Positions 1,553 to 16,691 of a DNA stretch of 48,908 nucleotides are shown here, in pieces (positions within the stretch are counted from its first letter, which is position 1; each line of letters begins with the position of its first letter). Made by a program: the position numbers and the translations under genes. The stretch spans positions 1 through 48,908 of IMG/VR virus record IMGVR_UViG_2897346870_000004; one strand, given 5' to 3'. The notes beneath the pieces were generated by a model. That model searched no databases. It saw only the letters and a program-made list of their open reading frames with translations, and was not told the origin of the DNA. The stretch is from a virus. Taxonomy: Duplodnaviria; Heunggongvirae; Uroviricota; Caudoviricetes.

Positions 1553-1741
1553 TCACGAGGACTGAAGTTGCTCGCAATTAAAATTTATCAGTTTTACTTT
1601 CTGCTCTCTGGAAACGCCTGCTTCTTTTTTACCTGAGAGCATTTTTTCGCATTCTGATTTGGTTAATTTTGTTTTTGAGTACCTTGTCCAGTTAGTAGGA
1701 GTGCCACCTTCCTTTTCAATAGTGGCGGTAATTTTATACAT
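1553..1741 (-). CDS. Hypothetical small early protein (62 aa)
   Basis: ORF with GGAGGTG RBS upstream of ATG at 1741; lies between lar and xis in the leftward operon. Confidence 0.4.
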   Translation of the reverse strand: MYKITATIEKEGGTPTNWTRYSKTKLTKSECEKMLSGKKEAGVSREQKVKLINFNCEQLQSS

Positions 1742-10772: not shown

Positions 10773-11519
10773 ATGAAAAATATTGCGACAGGCGGCGTTC
10801 TGGAACGCATCCGCCGACTGACCCCGCCACATGTAACCGCCCCATTCAGAACGGTAGCGGAGTGGCGCGAGTGGCAACTTGCTGAAGGCCAGAAACGTAG
10901 CGAGGAGATCAACCGCCTGAATCGCCAGTTGCGGGTGGAAAAAATTCTGAATCGCTCAGGCATCCAGCCGTTGCACCGTAAATGCTCGTTTGCGAATTAC
11001 CAGGTGCAGAACGACGGCCAGCGATACGCGTTAAGCCAGGCGAAATCCATCGCCGATGAACTGATGACCGGGTGTACAAATTTTGCGTTCAGCGGAAAAC
11101 CTGGTACCGGGAAGAATCACTTAGCGGCAGCTATCGGGAATCGCCTGCTGAAAGACGGTCAGACAGTGATTGTGGTTACCGTGGCTGATGTTATGAGTGC
11201 CCTCCACGCCAGCTATGACGACGGGCAGTCAGGCGAAAAATTTTTGCGGGAACTGTGCGAAGTGGATCTGCTGGTTCTTGATGAAATTGGCATTCAGCGC
11301 GAGACGAAAAACGAGCAGGTGGTACTGCACCAGATTATTGATCGACGGACAGCGTCGATGCGTAGCGTGGGAATGCTGACAAACCTGAACTATGAGGCCA
11401 TGAAAACATTGCTCGGCGAGCGGATTATGGATCGCATGACCATGAACGGCGGGCGATGGGTGAATTTTAACTGGGAGAGCTGGCGTCCGAATGTCGTCCA
11501 GCCAGGAATTGCGAAGTAA
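10773..11519 (+). CDS. ydaV: DnaC/IstB-like AAA+ helicase loader YdaV
   Basis: Walker [11 protein letters not shown] and Walker B LLVLDEIG motifs. Confidence 0.85.
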
Positions 11520-11541
11520 TTTTTACCGGGAGAAAAATTTA

Positions 11542-12114
11542 ATGGAGACTGTTTTTGACGCACTGAAAGCAATGGGGAAAGCTACGTCGGTAGAACTGGC
11601 TGCGCGACTTGATATCAGTCGTGAAGAAGTGCTGAACGAGCTGTGGGAACTGAAAAAGGCTGGCTTCGTTGATAAAAGCGTATACACCTGGCGCGTGGCT
11701 GATAACAACGTTCAGCAGGAACAGCCAGAGCAGGCAGAACTGCCGGAAGAAACCACCACGGCAACAGTCGCAAAAATTTCGGAGTGCGATTTAACTGCGA
11801 CGATTGAACAACGTGGCCCACAAACGGCGGATGAACTGGCTACGTTTTTCGGCATCACATCACGCAAAGTGGCTTCAACGCTGGCAATGGCAATCAGTAA
11901 AGGTCGTCTGATTCGCGTTAATCAGAACGGTAAATTTCGTTACTGCATGCCGGGCGATAATTTACCAGCAGAGCCGAAAGCTGCATCGGTAGCGGAAACT
12001 GATGGTAAAGCCTTTCCTCAGCCAGCCGGTGTTGCGTTACCAGTACAGGAAGCGGCAACACAGGAAGATATTAAAACAGAAACTGTGGCGGACATTGTGC
12101 AGTCGCTGCCATAG
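11542..12114 (+). CDS. ydaW: YdaW-like protein (DUF1627-like), apparently full length
   Basis: Start at ATG 11542 with GGGAGA RBS just after the ydaV stop; [33 protein letters not shown]-like N-terminus. Confidence 0.55.
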
Positions 12115-12318
12115 TTTACTGAAACGCAAGCGGATGACCTGGTTTTACCATCGCTGCATATGGCAAACCGCGAACTGCGTCGGGCGAAAAATCATGTCCA
12201 GAAGTGGGAGCGAGTCTGCGCCGCGCTGCGGGAGCTGAACAAGCACCGGGATATTGTCCGACAGATTGTCGATTCCTCCAGTCGTATTGTGTCGGAAAAG
12301 TGATTGCCGGAGGCGCTT

Positions 12319-12781: not shown

Positions 12782-12828
12782 TTCTGGCACAGGGGAGAGC
12801 TAGCGTGGTTGTCCGCTTTGTGCCAGAA
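12782..12828. repeat. 10-bp perfect inverted repeat TTCTGGCACA / TGTGCCAGAA separated by 27 nt
   Basis: Direct reading; at the left boundary of the AT-rich island, no following T-run. Confidence 0.5.
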
Positions 12829-12942
12829 GCGGAAGTTGCTAAAACGGTTTACCGTGTCCAAAGGAGTCAGGGGCAACAACGCGATATTGCTGACTGAGGT
12901 TTGGATCTAATCCTAGGACATGTCAGGAGCAATGCTAATCTA

Positions 12943-12971
12943 TTCATTAAAGCAGAGTATATGCCTATAAT
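12943..12971 (+). promoter_or_regulatory. Candidate sigma70 promoter (TTCATT, 17-nt spacer, TATAAT)
   Basis: Perfect -10 hexamer with a 17-nt spacer to a weak -35, about 84 bp upstream of the 13055 start. Confidence 0.3.
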
Positions 12972-13054
12972 TTAGAACCTTGCTATGGACATGAAAATGT
13001 GTAACATGCAATAGATCTCTACACACAGCAGGATTCCTACACCAAGGAGTGTTT

Positions 13055-13456
13055 ATGATTAACGAATCCAGTCCTTTCCCAGACAACGAAATTATATCCT
13101 TCTATGACTGTACTGGCATGTCCATTTTTTATCTACATAGTGATGGTGAAAGTTTTTATCACTATGACGGAACCCCACTAGCCTATTTATATAATAATGA
13201 ATATATGGTTTCATATTCAGGTCAGTATTTAGGTTGGCTATATAATGGGAGTATTATAGATTATAAAAATGGGGCTTATGTTTTTTTTACAGCTTATAGT
13301 TCTGGTGGGCCATCGCGACCAAGCCGAAAGTCTCGACCAAGTCGATTATCAAGAAGGAGCAGACCTGCTAAATTAATTCGTAATAGTCGACCGTCACGAC
13401 CTTCAAGACAAACCAGATGGAGCGAGCGAAGCAACATGAGTTTTTTCAGTAGTTAA
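13055..13456 (+). CDS. Hypothetical 133-aa protein: fourfold beta-hairpin-like repeat domain plus Ser/Arg/Pro-rich tail (cassette gene 1)
   Basis: AAGGAG RBS 5 nt before ATG 13055; four repeats of Y-x-x-x-G-x-x-[LIV]-x-[YWF]-[LF] (YDCTGMSIFYL, YDGTPLAYL, YSGQYLGWL, YKNGAYVFF); C-terminal SRPSR repeats; AT-rich. Confidence 0.6.
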   Translation: MINESSPFPDNEIISFYDCTGMSIFYLHSDGESFYHYDGTPLAYLYNNEYMVSYSGQYLGWLYNGSIIDYKNGAYVFFTAYSSGGPSRPSRKSRPSRLSRRSRPAKLIRNSRPSRPSRQTRWSERSNMSFFSS

Positions 13457-13534
13457 ATTCTCGTTGTATTAAAAAATAGATTGATTTGAAAGTTAGCATA
13501 TTTACCTACTATCAAATAATGAAAAGGGTTAAAG

Positions 13535-14950
13535 ATGAGTAATCTTCCTACTACAGTAAATACAACCGCAGTAACCACTGGTGTTGATAATTTCACGACG
13601 TCATTAACTACTTACCTCACCGATTTGAATCTTCCGGCAAACGGCGTTTTAGTCGGCAATGATCAGAGGTACACTGTAATTGATAACTTCCCAAAGGTTA
13701 TTGGTGGTATTGACAGTGCAAGGCTTTCAGATTCGTTATATCTATCAAAGTTTATTGCAGCGTGCGGCGCTGGCCTTTTTGATGCAGCACTAAATTTTTT
13801 ATGGAATGAAACAGTAGTAAATTTGAGATGGAAGGTTTCCCTTAACGATATAGACTATTTTTATGACAGTATTGTCACTGACACAAAAAGAAGAGATAAG
13901 CTTAAAACTGTAGATGATTTAGTTAATATAGAGGAGTGGGAGCTTGTTAAGGGTTGCCACTTAACGGGATTACTTTCGGATATAGGTTTTAAACATCTTG
14001 ATTATATAAGAGATATGAGGAACTGGGCTAGTGCAGCACATCCTAACCAAAGTCAGCTAACAGGATTCATGCTCATCTCATGGCTTGAAACCTGCATCAA
14101 AGAAGTGATTGCGAAAGAACCAGAACCTTCTGCATTACAAATAAAGAGAGTACTATCTAACATCAGAGGCGCTAACTTAGAAGGCGATGACTTAGCCCAT
14201 ATAAAATCTGCGATGGAAAACCTACCTCAAGATGTTGTTGATTCTTTCTTAAGAACTATATTTGGGATGTATACTAATGATAACGCGGCTGTACAGGTTA
14301 AGAATAATATAAAAGGAATTGCAAAAAAATGTTGGGATCTTTCGTCAGAAACTACGAAGTATAGTTGTGGTATAAGATATCAATCTTTTGCAGCTAACGG
14401 AGAGAGAGCTAGGAAAGATGCGGCTAATGAGTTTTTAACTACTGTATCTGGTCTTCCATATCTTCCATCAGACTCTTTGGCTGTTGAAATATCAATCAGA
14501 GTGACAAATTTATACCAAGCCCATTTTGGATGGAATAATTTCCATAATGAACCTGCTCATGCATCCTCTTTGGCAGCATATATCTCCTCTGCTGGGAATG
14601 TCCCTGACTCAGTTCGATTTGAATATGTTAAGACTATAGTTTTGTGTTATTTGGGCAACAGCTATGGAGTGTCTAATATGGCCGTTTCTTACTATGAAGA
14701 AATGATTGGTAAGTTCGGCGAGGCAGAGTTAAAAGAGTTCGTAAAAATAATTTATGATAAAGACGTGATATCTAGGCTTGCAACTCAAACATGTGCTTCT
14801 CGATATAAACATATAGCATCCAATTTTGTTAGCAGAACTACCAATCAAATAACCTCGCAAGCTCTTAATGCGATCATAGCATCGACTGCTCTCCAGTTAC
14901 CGAACCTATCGAAAGCAACGGCCTACGATAAACTTATTCGCTCATACTAA
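13535..14950 (+). CDS. Hypothetical 471-aa protein with HEPN-like R-x6-H motif (candidate abortive-infection effector; cassette gene 2)
   Basis: AAAGGG RBS; co-oriented 78 bp downstream of gene 1; followed by a strong terminator; motif RDMRNWASAAH at residues 159-169; no Walker A; AT-rich. Confidence 0.7.
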   Translation: MSNLPTTVNTTAVTTGVDNFTTSLTTYLTDLNLPANGVLVGNDQRYTVIDNFPKVIGGIDSARLSDSLYLSKFIAACGAGLFDAALNFLWNETVVNLRWKVSLNDIDYFYDSIVTDTKRRDKLKTVDDLVNIEEWELVKGCHLTGLLSDIGFKHLDYIRDMRNWASAAHPNQSQLTGFMLISWLETCIKEVIAKEPEPSALQIKRVLSNIRGANLEGDDLAHIKSAMENLPQDVVDSFLRTIFGMYTNDNAAVQVKNNIKGIAKKCWDLSSETTKYSCGIRYQSFAANGERARKDAANEFLTTVSGLPYLPSDSLAVEISIRVTNLYQAHFGWNNFHNEPAHASSLAAYISSAGNVPDSVRFEYVKTIVLCYLGNSYGVSNMAVSYYEEMIGKFGEAELKEFVKIIYDKDVISRLATQTCASRYKHIASNFVSRTTNQITSQALNAIIASTALQLPNLSKATAYDKLIRSY

Positions 14951-14987
14951 ATACTGTGAGACAAAAACAGGCTTAGATCAGATAACA

Positions 14988-15012
14988 GCCCTCTCTATTC
15001 GAGGGCTTTTTT
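14988..15012 (+). terminator. Rho-independent terminator (GCCCTC stem, 7-nt loop, GAGGGC, TTTTTT)
   Basis: Direct reading, 38 bp after the stop of the 471-aa gene. Confidence 0.65.
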
Positions 15013-15102
15013 GTAGGAATGCTTAATTGAATATCCGCTTTTCGCTCAAAGAGGACTAAAATGTTGGCTTGTTTCTGACTTAGAGCATTTAAGGAAGTGC
15101 TG

Positions 15103-15321
15103 GTGGTGACTGGTTGTTGTGTTCCATTTCTACAGAATAAAATCACAGAAACTATACCCAATAGTTGTATTGAATCACTGACGAGACAGCCTCATATTTA
15201 TCAGGACTGGTGTGCGTCTAATACAGGGGGTTGTCGTGCTGGTTCTCAAATGTGCGCTGGCTATTGCGGCTGTAATGGCAATTTATTGTCTTGCTGTTGT
15301 TCTTATGGAGCGGCTTTCTGA
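15103..15321 (+). CDS. Candidate cysteine-rich small protein (about 72 aa, GTG start)
   Basis: AAGGAA RBS 6 nt before GTG 15103; 11 Cys in about 72 residues (GCC, CAGYCGCNGNLLSCCCS); weak support, possibly spurious. Confidence 0.25.
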   Translation: MVTGCCVPFLQNKITETIPNSCIESLTRQPHIYQDWCASNTGGCRAGSQMCAGYCGCNGNLLSCCCSYGAAF

Positions 15322-15473
15322 TTGATTACATACTGGCTAGAAAAAAGGTGTTACCTTGGTTTATCTTTGTCCGGCAAGGTGCGCTCATTAATCTTAAGTA
15401 AATTTATTGCTCAAGTATTCAGATTACTTCTTATGGTTGAAGTCTCCTGTCAATGTAGAACCAATATATTTAC

Positions 15474-15510
15474 AAAAATGAGACCCGTCGGGGATAGCCC
15501 TGCCGGGTCT
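15474..15510 (-). terminator. Hairpin plus T-run terminator for the YeaR-like gene
   Basis: AGACCCG / CGGGTCT stem followed on the minus strand by CATTTTTG, about 30 nt after the stop. Confidence 0.45.
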
Positions 15511-15539
15511 GACTGTTAAAGCATTTTTAATATGATCAT

Positions 15540-15878
15540 CTATTTTTTGGTGCTATAGACTTTTTCGCCCGAGAAGTCTGGAGCGACCCAAAAGTTAATA
15601 TTAAACTGAGCATCATCGCTTAGTTCAACACGGTGCCAGTATTGTGGTGGGCTTGTTGCAAAAGCGCCAGCATTAATGACTACTTTTATCTCCGGTTCAG
15701 TAGCATTCTCATCAGTAAAACCATAATATGTTACAGTGCCTTCCATTACGCACAACTGCCCAAAAACACCTGCTGCTGTATTATGATGTGTTAATAACGC
15801 TGAAGGTACGTTCTCTTTTGTGAAGAACGGAGTTGAGCGTTTGATTACCCAATCTTTAGGAATTCTCTTGTGTGTCAT
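15540..15878 (-). CDS. YeaR-like (DUF1971 / TehB C-terminal-like) protein, 112 aa
   Basis: AGGAGG RBS; motifs RSTPFF, VMEGTVTYYG, EPEIKVVINAGAFATSPPQYWH, FNINFWVAPD resemble my recollection of YeaR; AT-rich moron on the opposite strand to neighbours. Confidence 0.7.
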   Translation of the reverse strand: MTHKRIPKDWVIKRSTPFFTKENVPSALLTHHNTAAGVFGQLCVMEGTVTYYGFTDENATEPEIKVVINAGAFATSPPQYWHRVELSDDAQFNINFWVAPDFSGEKVYSTKK

Positions 15879-15893
15879 AACCACCTCCTCAAA

Positions 15894-15916
15894 AACATGC
15901 ATTATAAATGCGTGTT
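15894..15916. promoter_or_regulatory. NsrR-like 11-1-11 inverted repeat AACATGCATTA-T-AAATGCGTGTT with a TATAAT at its centre on the minus strand
   Basis: Direct reading; 16 bp upstream of the YeaR-like start; resembles the NsrR operator consensus as I recall it (AAnATGCATTT-n-AAATGCATnTT). Confidence 0.4.
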
Positions 15917-16203
15917 TTTGAGGGTTATGTCAAGCTGTTATGAAACACATAATTGATATGTTGATTAGAGGAGAAGATATAATAAATATGGTTGTTTTTC
16001 GTATAACTATTTGTTTTACTTTTAGTTTATGCATTCTGTGTGTTAGGAATAAGTTATTAAAGTTTAATCAAAAAATCTCGATGTAGTCCACATAGATTAT
16101 TGTTACTGAACCTTATTGTGTGTATTAGTTGTGTTCTGAAATTTCAGCTTAATTATTTATGATGTATTTTTTAACGATAAATATTTTCCCAGGATACCTT
16201 TAC

Positions 16204-16230
16204 TGTGTATATAAATAAATTATATACACA
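16204..16230. repeat. 27-bp palindrome TGTGTATATAA-ATAAA-TTATATACACA
   Basis: 11-bp perfect arms with 5-nt spacer inside a roughly 790-bp AT-rich non-coding stretch. Confidence 0.6.
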
Positions 16231-16691
16231 TAAATAATGTAAAGGCGTCCTTTTAGATATATCTTATCAAATGTTAATGACTTGAGTGGGAAATATGATT
16301 CCAGCAACTTATCATGTGGCTACTTTATAAAAATAATGCCCATATAAAACAACAAGCGAAAAGGATTACGGATAAAAAAGGAGCGAGATGTGCGAACTTG
16401 TTATTTTCCATGTTTAACCACCTTAAATAATTGATGATGACGGGATGATTGCATCTGTAATGCTTTTATTGAAATGTTATGATAAAAAAGAACTTTTGCA
16501 TAACATTAAAATGTAATTTATCTAATCGTTTTTAATAATAAATGTCGTATTTCTATCCTTGTACCAGCTATTTGATATGTAGTGTTTGTTCATGCTATGT
16601 GGGGCTTTACACCATAGCCAGTTTATTTATACTTTATTCGTCAGCCTGAACAACTGGCATCTGCTGCGCTGCGCCATCGAGAGATTGAGAA

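Follow-up and report, generated by a model that had tools for sequence, protein, structure and literature searches.

The window analysed here is a 48,908-nt stretch of DNA from the IMG/VR virus record IMGVR_UViG_2897346870_000004. It carries a compact cargo cassette with two genes, designated ORF-A and ORF-B, and the following features were located in and around it.

12812–12833, no strand: left boundary palindrome, TCCGCTT-TGTGCCAG-AAGCGGA; no second exact match occurs in the window, and chance would give 0
12841–15041, plus strand: swappable cargo cassette of 2.2 kb, containing the promoter candidate, ORF-A, ORF-B, and the terminator
12943–12971, plus strand: candidate sigma-70 promoter; -35 TTCATT (12943–12948, 3/6), 17-nt spacer, -10 TATAAT (12966–12971, 6/6)
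13044–13049, plus strand: Shine-Dalgarno sequence AAGGAG for ORF-A, 5 nt ahead of the ATG at 13055
13055–13456, plus strand: ORF-A, 133 aa, 4-fold beta-flower protein
13457–13534, plus strand: ORF-A/ORF-B spacer, 78 nt, with AAGGG at 13524–13528
13535–14950, plus strand: ORF-B, 471 aa, all-alpha; N-terminal HEPN-like domain and C-terminal helical-repeat region
14009–14041, plus strand: codons of R159-DMRNWASAA-H169, with the predicted catalytic R162-N163-x5-H169 motif
14987–15012, plus strand: intrinsic terminator found by the terminator scan; 7-bp GC-rich stem (14987–15007) followed by a T-run
15034–15055, no strand: right boundary palindrome, TCCGCTTT-TCGCTC-AAAGAGGA, a degenerate version of the palindrome on the left

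The cassette is best read as a mobile 'moron' that occupies the cargo slot of a lambdoid, Rac-like E. coli prophage, between replication and nin/Q-like genes. Its upstream neighbours are ydaU, ydaV, a DUF1627 gene, and a DUF977 gene, and its downstream neighbours are DUF1367, DUF1364, and DUF1133 genes; this gene set bears out the site between the replication genes and the nin/Q module proposed in an earlier sequence-only reading of the same DNA. The AT-rich island described there was recovered in the GC profile (0.36–0.41 over 12.8–15.8 kb and 0.28–0.30 at 15.8–16.6 kb, with flanks of about 0.50) and turned out to be composite, comprising the swappable cassette and a conserved prophage backbone (15042–16690) that is 97% identical in another Rac-like prophage. 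The flanks in the Rac-like prophage of NCTC10444 are 96.6–97.3% identical up to position 12840 and from position 15042, and between them lies another 2.2-kb cargo. The same cassette (window positions of about 12811 to 15047) was found at 92–94% nucleotide identity in Proteus, Enterobacter mori, a P2-like prophage, and metagenome contigs, and a Pantoea plasmid carries a copy without the 5' end. ORF-A and ORF-B co-travel as a discrete 2.2-kb cassette, which supports the earlier claim of a self-contained cassette in the sense of a mobile unit with sharp boundaries. The co-occurrence outside the source prophage, which had been proposed as a check, was observed in at least five genomic contexts, and each gene was also found without the other. 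In other strains, this slot of the prophage holds QueH or an alpha/beta hydrolase as cargo.

The left palindrome forms a hairpin with a dG of -12.4 kcal/mol, and junctions with other genomic contexts lie within it. The right palindrome alone folds weakly (dG -4.5 kcal/mol) and contains the junctions of loci L002, L086, L098, and L099; the two palindromes pair as direct repeat D4 and inverted repeat I1. Their origin from integron attC sites was rejected on reading the sequence, because the flanking palindromes have no GTTRRRY core. In a reading considered unlikely, the cassette would be swapped among prophages, islands, and plasmids via recombination inside the flanking palindromes (TCCGC-N11/12-GCGGA).

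The arrangement of two co-oriented ORFs with a 78-bp gap and a ribosome-binding site each (AAGGAG and AAGGG, respectively) was as the sequence-only reading had described it, and so was the downstream intrinsic terminator (dG -12.1 kcal/mol, z -3.95; no shuffle folded equally well). The promoter claim held in part: the -10 element is an exact TATAAT, whereas the -35 element agrees at only three of six positions, and the site scored under the threshold of the promoter scan. Judging from these motifs, a real promoter at 12943–12971 is plausible. The spacer between the genes holds a weak promoter-like site at 13493–13520 (9/12 positions in the promoter scan), with no terminator detected by the terminator scan and no stable fold (z +0.96). 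The cassette is probably a single transcription unit.

ORF-A consists of eight beta-strands (residues 14–78), a tail of Arg/Ser/Pro triplet repeats (85–120), and a C-terminal RWSExSNxSFF segment, and the same architecture is seen in the alignments of its family. In the AlphaFold model, pLDDT is about 91 in the strands, 86 in the C-terminal segment, and 53–63 in the tail. The RefSeq start corresponds to an internal Met (window position 13118); homologues conserve the N-terminus that begins at 13055. The earlier statement that neither protein is recognisable fails for ORF-A, which belongs to Pfam family PF21784 (E = 2e-26, residues 15–131, profile positions 2–116 of 116) with a score of 93.1 bits against a gathering cutoff of 25 and with the eight-stranded four-hairpin fold of the family. 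This family includes the validated defence gene Cernunnos, an integron cassette of Vibrio cholerae that carries PF21784 and has verified anti-phage activity (Darracq et al. 2024, bioRxiv 10.1101/2024.07.02.601686); a second, independent screen recovered Cernunnos too. Homologues of Cernunnos, defined by blastp against the V. cholerae N16961 protein (E < 1e-5, at least 50% query coverage), occur mainly in Escherichia prophages, and it acts as a single gene (bioRxiv 10.1101/2024.07.02.601686). ORF-A shares this Pfam domain with Cernunnos and covers its full profile; none of the 58 relatives obtained in the ORF-A family profile search was a Vibrio protein. ORF-A had no match in PADLOC-DB v2.0 at E values up to 1, and no MNT or DNA-binding domain was found in it with Pfam. 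Most likely, ORF-A is an independent single-gene defence with a putative anti-phage effect, stacked upstream of ORF-B by chance.

For ORF-B, the earlier statement stands: there was no match in Pfam at E values up to 1, none in NCBIfam, and none at E values up to 1 in PADLOC-DB v2.0 (2023), a release older than Cernunnos and HepS. Searches of the PDB with its sequence and profile gave spurious matches only, Foldseek against PDB and viral models gave nothing under E = 0.01 with a weak likeness to ARM/HEAT-type helical repeats, and no papers on the protein accessions or the PHROG id were found in the literature. The RDMRNWASAAH segment at residues 159–169 and the lack of a Walker A motif were verified. 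The motif DYIRDMRNWASAAHPN is invariant across 40 aligned sequences, and among 48 sequences at 22–50% identity, the only invariant columns are W90, R162, N163, and H169. The stretch R162-N163-W-A-S-A-A-H169 conforms to the HEPN-superfamily motif (Rx4-6H with a polar residue after Arg), its spacing of six residues being the upper limit of that rule, and the model of ORF-B predicts the four-helix up-down bundle of the superfamily. DUF4145 and Abi-type HEPN proteins (AbiD/F Abi_2, AbiJ, AbiV, and AbiU2) are likewise stand-alone members of the HEPN superfamily in defence islands, but none of their models matched ORF-B significantly, and ORF-B scored below the thresholds of the described HEPN families (DUF4145, Abi_2, HEPN_AbiV, and others). 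In hhalign against a single DUF4145 HEPN protein, the RN..H motif of ORF-B sits on the RNEASH (RNxxxH) motif, at a probability of only 18%. A Pfam scan of 48 divergent members gave no consistent match, with one member matching DUF4145 (0.007) and one Abi_C (0.08). The HEPN reading of ORF-B draws on the conserved R162, N163, and H169, the placement of the motif in hhalign, and the predicted fold; no sequence profile ties ORF-B to a named HEPN family. ORF-B belongs to an uncatalogued family with a predicted N-terminal HEPN-superfamily domain, in which R162-N163-x5-H169 is the predicted RNase site.

The ORF-B family comprises about 1,030 clusters at 50% identity and is distributed patchily over bacteria and archaea, including Firmicutes, Actinobacteria, and Cyanobacteria, on islands, plasmids, and prophages. 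Members were found on 90 plasmids and 17 IMG/VR contigs, and tblastn of ORF-B against 50,697 sequenced phage genomes returned no match. The family is horizontally mobile. The defence-gene setting suspected from the sequence was also recovered, since relatives of ORF-B are located in defence islands according to a descriptive listing of their neighbours. A Proteus relative adjoins a CBASS cyclase and a 4TM effector, an Enterobacter hormaechei relative lies near CD-NTase/Cap15, DUF4145, and HigBA, the Pantoea plasmid copy lies near DUF4297-HerA, and ORF-B of the Pseudomonadaceae locus L013 lies near an Mrr nuclease. The 122 ORF-B neighbours include Hma, DISARM, BREX, PARIS, and type I/II restriction components. 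In E. coli AH50 and E. hormaechei, the ORF-B homologues are flanked by a DUF4145 gene in convergent orientation. To seek a conserved partner of ORF-B, its neighbours in 80 genomes, which represent many phyla and include two archaea, were clustered all against all, and nothing recurred in more than four loci.

The relationship between the two genes is the point on which the interpretations differ most. In other lineages, an unfiltered family HMM detected no beta-flower gene in the vicinity of about 95 ORF-B loci, and two ORF-B homologues, one 85% and one 66% identical, lack ORF-A altogether. ORF-A carries a +1 frameshift in Proteus and is truncated by a 5' deletion in Pantoea, and ORF-B is intact in both. 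Close homologues of ORF-A occur without ORF-B, as seen in Pectobacterium and in a prophage of Bacillus. An obligate two-gene system is therefore unsupported, and ORF-A and ORF-B probably form two modules that can be separated. As judged from these broken copies and solitary loci, ORF-A appears to be dispensable for ORF-B. A two-component system, obligate or facultative, in which ORF-A with its Arg-rich tail would serve as sensor, regulator, or adaptor for the HEPN effector ORF-B, is consistent with the joint movement of the pair, at 92–94% nucleotide identity, through at least five contexts and with the 78-nt gap lacking a terminator. In addition, a divergent pair at L013 (ORF-B 58% and ORF-A 32% identical) is still adjacent, which hints at functional linkage rather than mere stacking. 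Set against the solitary ORF-B and ORF-A loci, the disrupted copies of ORF-A, and the single-gene function of Cernunnos, a two-component system is unlikely.

Homologues of the beta-flower gene also directly adjoin Gabija, Old, and PDC-S46 on the same strand, which would fit an accessory role; locus L108 was rejected as a beta-flower relative, being a low-complexity SRP-repeat artefact. The beta-flower module could be a shared sensor, regulator, or booster, whose effector is HEPN-like here and Gabija, Old, or PDC-S46 elsewhere. A joint reading, in which the (SRP)n-tailed beta-flower protein is a promiscuous accessory beside unrelated effectors and, separately, recombination at the palindromes shuffles the cassette, is considered unlikely.

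The cassette might alternatively serve no defence at all and bring lysogenic-conversion or regulatory cargo, in which case ORF-B would be HEPN-like but not catalytic, acting as a scaffold or binding RNA, and the function of ORF-A would be unrelated. The occupation of the same slot by QueH or alpha/beta hydrolase genes and the lack of ORF-B matches in defence databases are in line with such cargo, but the invariant R-N...H triad is a catalytic HEPN signature, the ORF-B family has spread patchily by horizontal transfer and lies beside known defence systems, and the Pfam family of ORF-A contains a validated defence gene. These data make non-defence cargo distinctly unlikely.

A toxin-antitoxin addiction module, with ORF-B as HEPN toxin and the upstream ORF-A as antitoxin stabilising the mobile element rather than acting against phages, would agree with the HigBA modules close by in two contexts. 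It is very improbable, given that the ORF-B family has no conserved partner in the 80 genomes, that ORF-A has neither an MNT nor a DNA-binding domain, and that the genes are separated by 78 nt and do not overlap. Conserved co-occurrence and an indispensable antitoxin, which characterise type II/VII systems, were not seen for ORF-A and ORF-B. The role of ORF-A as antitoxin was rejected because two lineages keep an intact ORF-B beside a disrupted ORF-A, and an essential antitoxin would not survive such loss.

An interbacterial toxin delivered by type VI secretion or a polymorphic-toxin system is also highly unlikely as the identity of ORF-B: in four contigs, an Hcp gene precedes the 85% identical homologue by 30 nt, and the E. 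mori copy adjoins an Rhs deaminase toxin with its immunity gene, but ORF-B has no PAAR, Rhs, or MIX-type N-terminal domain, and a T6SS effector was rejected because of the missing conserved downstream immunity gene and the spread of the family over Firmicutes, Actinobacteria, Cyanobacteria, and archaea, all without T6SS. HEPN domains are present in polymorphic toxins, as Anantharaman et al. reportedly noted in 2013, which counts for this option; 471 aa is large for a cargo of the Hcp lumen, which counts against it.

The explanation favoured here, held to be only slightly more likely than not, is that the cassette contains two stacked single-gene defence modules, where ORF-B would be a new family of the HEPN abortive-infection type and ORF-A a Cernunnos-family protein with a putative defence function. 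Among the closest known counterparts of ORF-B is HepS of the Salmonella prophage Gifsy-1, a solo HEPN abortive-infection protein that is inactive by default, is triggered by a phage protein, and cleaves tRNA (Sargen et al., Nature 2026, PMC13043305). Like HepS, ORF-B is a single, predicted HEPN-like protein without a partner gene, and the accessory slot in which it lies follows the replication genes of a lambdoid prophage. HepS is tetrameric, and its homologues are limited to 250 aa or less and carry an R100-x4-H105 motif (PMC13043305), whereas ORF-B has R162-x6-H169 and an additional helical region of about 280 aa. With its 471 aa, ORF-B falls outside the HepS family as delimited by length (no more than 250 aa), Rx4H, and PSI-BLAST homology to STM14_3211. 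The combination of a HEPN domain with a non-HEPN region in one prophage-encoded protein, predicted for ORF-B, is known from Tha-1 and Tha-2, the tail-activated HEPN defence of Staphylococcus aureus prophages; Tha has 301 aa and a C-terminal HEPN domain with R265NSIMH270 (Rostol et al. 2024, PMC11087260). The HEPN domain is C-terminal in Tha and the HEPN-like domain is N-terminal in ORF-B, and no sequence relationship between them was detected.

For these two stacked modules, the following course of events can be proposed. The weak promoter of the cassette, whose TATAAT begins at 12966, would initiate transcription, and the terminator at 14987–15012 would stop it. By analogy with HepS, Tha, and AbiD/F, ORF-B would be an autonomous effector that is silent in the lysogen. 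A phage-derived cue, perhaps sensed by the C-terminal helical region of about 280 aa, would switch it on, and the active protein may then cut cellular RNA, so that the infection is aborted. ORF-A would act as a separate single-gene defence.

The practical value of these results is modest: defence islands could be annotated better, and the 2.2-kb cassette makes a clean construct for experiments. The cassette offers a compact natural test of a Cernunnos-type beta-flower protein alone or together with neighbouring effectors, and it also bears on how defence cargo is exchanged at a fixed slot of lambdoid prophages. Palindrome recombination, if true, would mean that cassettes are shuffled among the cargo slots of prophages by a mechanism not recognised so far. 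The ORF-B family is new to the catalogues, being absent from Pfam, NCBIfam, and PADLOC, and its architecture, with a predicted N-terminal HEPN domain and a large helical region, is new for the solo-HEPN abortive-infection class. If ORF-B is anti-phage, a family widespread in bacteria and archaea would join this class.

The region matches the E. coli PF9285 chromosome at 100% identity and lies in a Rac-like lambdoid prophage with the upstream gene order kilR, sieB, racR, ydaS, ydaT, ydaU, ydaV, followed by DUF1627 and DUF977 genes. The affinity to Rac is also indicated by the RalA sRNA (window 1557-1735), detected at 215 bits. In the type I toxin-antitoxin system RalR/RalA, a known feature of the Rac prophage, RalA acts as the antitoxin. 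The DUF1627 gene (window ~11542-12303) is a RefSeq pseudogene with an internal stop, split in the window into ORFs 11491-12114 and 12160-12303. The cassette, a swappable cargo unit, is followed by DUF1367, DUF1364, and DUF1133 genes and then by lysis genes. Its features in the window are as follows:

12812-12833 and 15034-15055, palindromes TCCGC-N11/12-GCGGA at both cassette ends
12841-15041, the 2.2-kb cassette
12966-12971, perfect TATAAT of the candidate promoter
13055-13456, plus strand, ORF-A, 133 aa
13535-14950, plus strand, ORF-B, 471 aa
14987-15007, terminator stem, with a T-run

The sequence-only reading had described a self-contained transcription unit. The coordinates of both co-oriented ORFs were confirmed, with a gap of 78 nt, and each has a ribosome-binding site (AAGGAG 5 nt 5' of the ORF-A ATG and AAGGG 6 nt 5' of the ORF-B ATG); the terminator, called clean, is strong (dG -12.1 kcal/mol, z -3.95). 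The promoter was upheld in its TATAAT element, but the -35 element matches at 3/6 positions and the promoter is absent from the promoter-scan list. The AT-rich island was also borne out in composition, with a GC content of ~0.50 in the flanks, 0.36-0.41 in the cassette, and 0.28-0.30 at 15.8-16.6 kb, but it is composite, because the part beyond 15042 belongs to the conserved backbone of the prophage. This backbone includes a DUF1971 gene (15540-15902, minus strand) resembling the N-terminal domain of TehB and a ~0.7-kb non-coding stretch (15900-16650, GC 0.28-0.30), both outside the cassette; hokD occupies this area in other lambdoid prophages. ORF-A and ORF-B are likely co-transcribed, since the terminator scan revealed no terminator and folding no stable structure in their spacer. 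RefSeq annotates ORF-A as a 339-nt CDS from an internal Met (window 13118-13456); this public start is probably too short, because the 21 residues upstream of it are kept in homologues and the strong AAGGAG precedes the ATG at 13055.

The cassette forms a discrete and mobile unit. In the Rac-like prophage of E. coli NCTC10444, the sequences on either side (through 12840 and from 15042 onward) are 96.6-97.3% identical to the window, and the 2.2-kb cargo between them consists of two hypothetical genes unrelated to the cassette. After the DUF977 gene, other lambdoid prophages hold QueH, an alpha/beta hydrolase, or small ORFs with an IS3 element; this position is therefore a variable cargo slot. 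The alternative cargo at exactly the same slot (L002 3235-5214, NCTC10444; also L089) encodes proteins of 320 aa, weakly matching HEPN_RES_NTD1 (1.9e-4), and 333 aa, weakly matching GNAT, and may be another conflict system. The cassette was found in 2/5,426 complete E. coli genomes and recurs elsewhere (window ~12811 to 15047) in several contexts, at 92-94% nucleotide identity in the first four listed:

Proteus mirabilis, integrase island beside smpB
Enterobacter mori chromosome, adjoining an Rhs toxin and HigBA
End of a P2-like prophage, after gpU and gpD
Metagenome contigs
Pantoea plasmid, copy lacking the 5' end, directly 3' of a DUF4297-HerA defence system

When the loci L002, L086, L098, L099, and L101 were compared with the cassette ends, the homology breakpoints fell inside the end palindromes in every context examined (Rac-like and P2-like prophages, Proteus island, Enterobacter chromosome, and Pantoea plasmid). 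A relaxed form of the palindrome pattern was rare in unrelated loci (14 occurrences in 838 kb). The end palindromes are possibly a site at which cargo is exchanged by recombination.

In agreement with the sequence-only reading, ORF-B lacks a Walker A motif and has RDMRNWASAAH as residues 159-169. It had zero matches among Pfam, NCBIfam, or PADLOC (2023 copy) models and matched PHROG 27609 (function unknown) at 1.9e-74. The family is large, with over 1,697 clusters at the 90% identity level and 1,030 representatives at the 50% level (E <= 0.001), and is scattered among Proteobacteria, Firmicutes, Cyanobacteria, Bacteroidota, Actinobacteria, Chloroflexota, and the archaea Nitrosotalea and Methanococcoides. 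W90, R162, N163, and H169 are its sole invariant columns (48-sequence alignment, 22-50% identity); the last three are the triad (Arg, polar residue, His) that a catalytic HEPN site would be expected to have, and six residues separate Arg from His. In hhalign, the motif aligned with the RNEASH motif of a neighbouring DUF4145 protein at a low probability of 18%. The HEPN assignment made from the motif thus gained an invariant triad, and ORF-B quite likely contains a HEPN-superfamily domain, but no described HEPN sequence family matches it and, judged by sequence, it is a member of none. The AlphaFold model (40-sequence alignment) is all-alpha and confident, with a pLDDT of 88.4. Foldseek returned no global match and only weak ARM/HEAT-type helical-repeat similarity, so the C-terminal ~280 residues form a helical-repeat region without known relative.

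The ORF-B gene is present on 90 plasmids (50/90 conjugative) and 17 IMG/VR contigs and in none of 50,697 sequenced phage genomes, a distribution more in keeping with accessory cargo than with a core gene of phages. After clustering of all neighbours within 2.5 kb of ORF-B in 80 genomes, no family occurred in more than four loci; ORF-B is without an obligate partner. Strong matches among 122 neighbours (38 genomes) included Hma, DISARM, BREX helicases, PARIS AriA, methyl-directed restriction enzymes, and type I methyltransferases, along with ordinary housekeeping genes, and the association with defence genes is qualitative. DUF4297-HerA and an Mrr nuclease are among the named neighbours, CBASS adjoins relatives in Proteus and Enterobacter hormaechei, and a DUF4145 gene and an integrase lie beside the relative in a tRNA-Thr island of E. 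coli AH50.

The claim that neither protein matches anything did not hold for ORF-A, which is a 4-fold beta-flower protein (Pfam PF21784, E=2e-26, full profile coverage), a fold described by Durairaj et al. 2023. In its model, the eight strands (residues 14-78) have a pLDDT of ~91, the tail (85-120) is of low confidence, and the C-terminal segment is better defined. The tail (window 13307-13420, residues 85-122), over which the PF21784 match extends and AlphaFold confidence is low, consists of about ten X-Arg-Pro/Ser triplets (SRPSRKSRPSRLSRRSRP...) and then W-S-x-x-S-x-x-F-F, both conserved in both subfamilies. Beta-flower proteins encoded beside Old, Gabija, and PDC-S46 and in a Bacillus prophage all bear an (SRP)n tail. 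PF21784 is also carried by Cernunnos, a single-gene cassette among the 16 from the V. cholerae integron whose anti-phage activity has been verified; its homologues are found mainly in Escherichia prophages (Darracq et al. 2024, bioRxiv 10.1101/2024.07.02.601686). Cernunnos was recovered again by a 2026 screen. By the shared profile, ORF-A is related to Cernunnos at family level and is a possible homologue of the Cernunnos protein itself.

The proposed two-gene cassette stands insofar as the pair travels as a mobile unit, in enterobacteria; obligate linkage is not supported, with solo ORF-B loci and broken ORF-A speaking against it. Linkage is also favoured by a divergent pair from a genome of the Pseudomonadaceae (ORF-B 58% and ORF-A 32% identical; L013). 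Against obligate linkage, the beta-flower family HMM had no match in the remaining 78 genome loci of ORF-B, nor in 16 further viral loci. An 85%-identical ORF-B without ORF-A starts 30 nt 3' of a T6SS Hcp gene (four metagenome contigs, L103-L106), where homology to the window starts 27 nt inside ORF-B, and a 66%-identical one stands alone. ORF-B is intact in Proteus, where ORF-A has a +1 frameshift within an A-run (an allele common to five contigs), and in Pantoea, where only about the last 120 nt of ORF-A are left. Relatives of ORF-A without ORF-B lie on the same strand 84 nt downstream of PDC-S46 in Scalindua (L085 2737-5402), 46 nt upstream of Old (L092 4001-6244), and 184 nt upstream of GajA/GajB, a complete Gabija system (L096 2256-6624), as a lone moron in a Bacillus prophage, flanked by terminase and integrase genes (L094 4001-4369), and beside unknown genes in Pectobacterium. 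Because each gene occurs alone and ORF-A is disrupted where ORF-B is intact, two separable modules are favoured, with room for a facultative accessory role of ORF-A. The solo loci of both genes and the disrupted ORF-A beside intact ORF-B rule out ORF-A as an essential antitoxin.

By function and genomic position, the known systems nearest to ORF-B are the solo HEPN prophage defence proteins HepS and Tha (Sargen et al. PMC13043305; Rostol et al. 2024 PMC11087260), and Cernunnos is nearest to ORF-A. Its size, and the lack of a sequence match to any PDB chain, set ORF-B apart from the HepS family, and it also falls outside every HEPN or Abi family that has a profile. In the lysogen, the cassette would be expressed from its own promoter, and ORF-B would rest inactive, as HepS does. 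The predicted R162/N163/H169 site would be activated by a phage cue, which the C-terminal helical region perhaps senses, and the ensuing RNA cleavage would arrest the cell and abort the infection, with ORF-A supplying a second, Cernunnos-type defence layer. ORF-B is predicted to be a solo effector of HEPN type, uncatalogued and new in its architecture, whose gene is stacked with that of a beta-flower protein.
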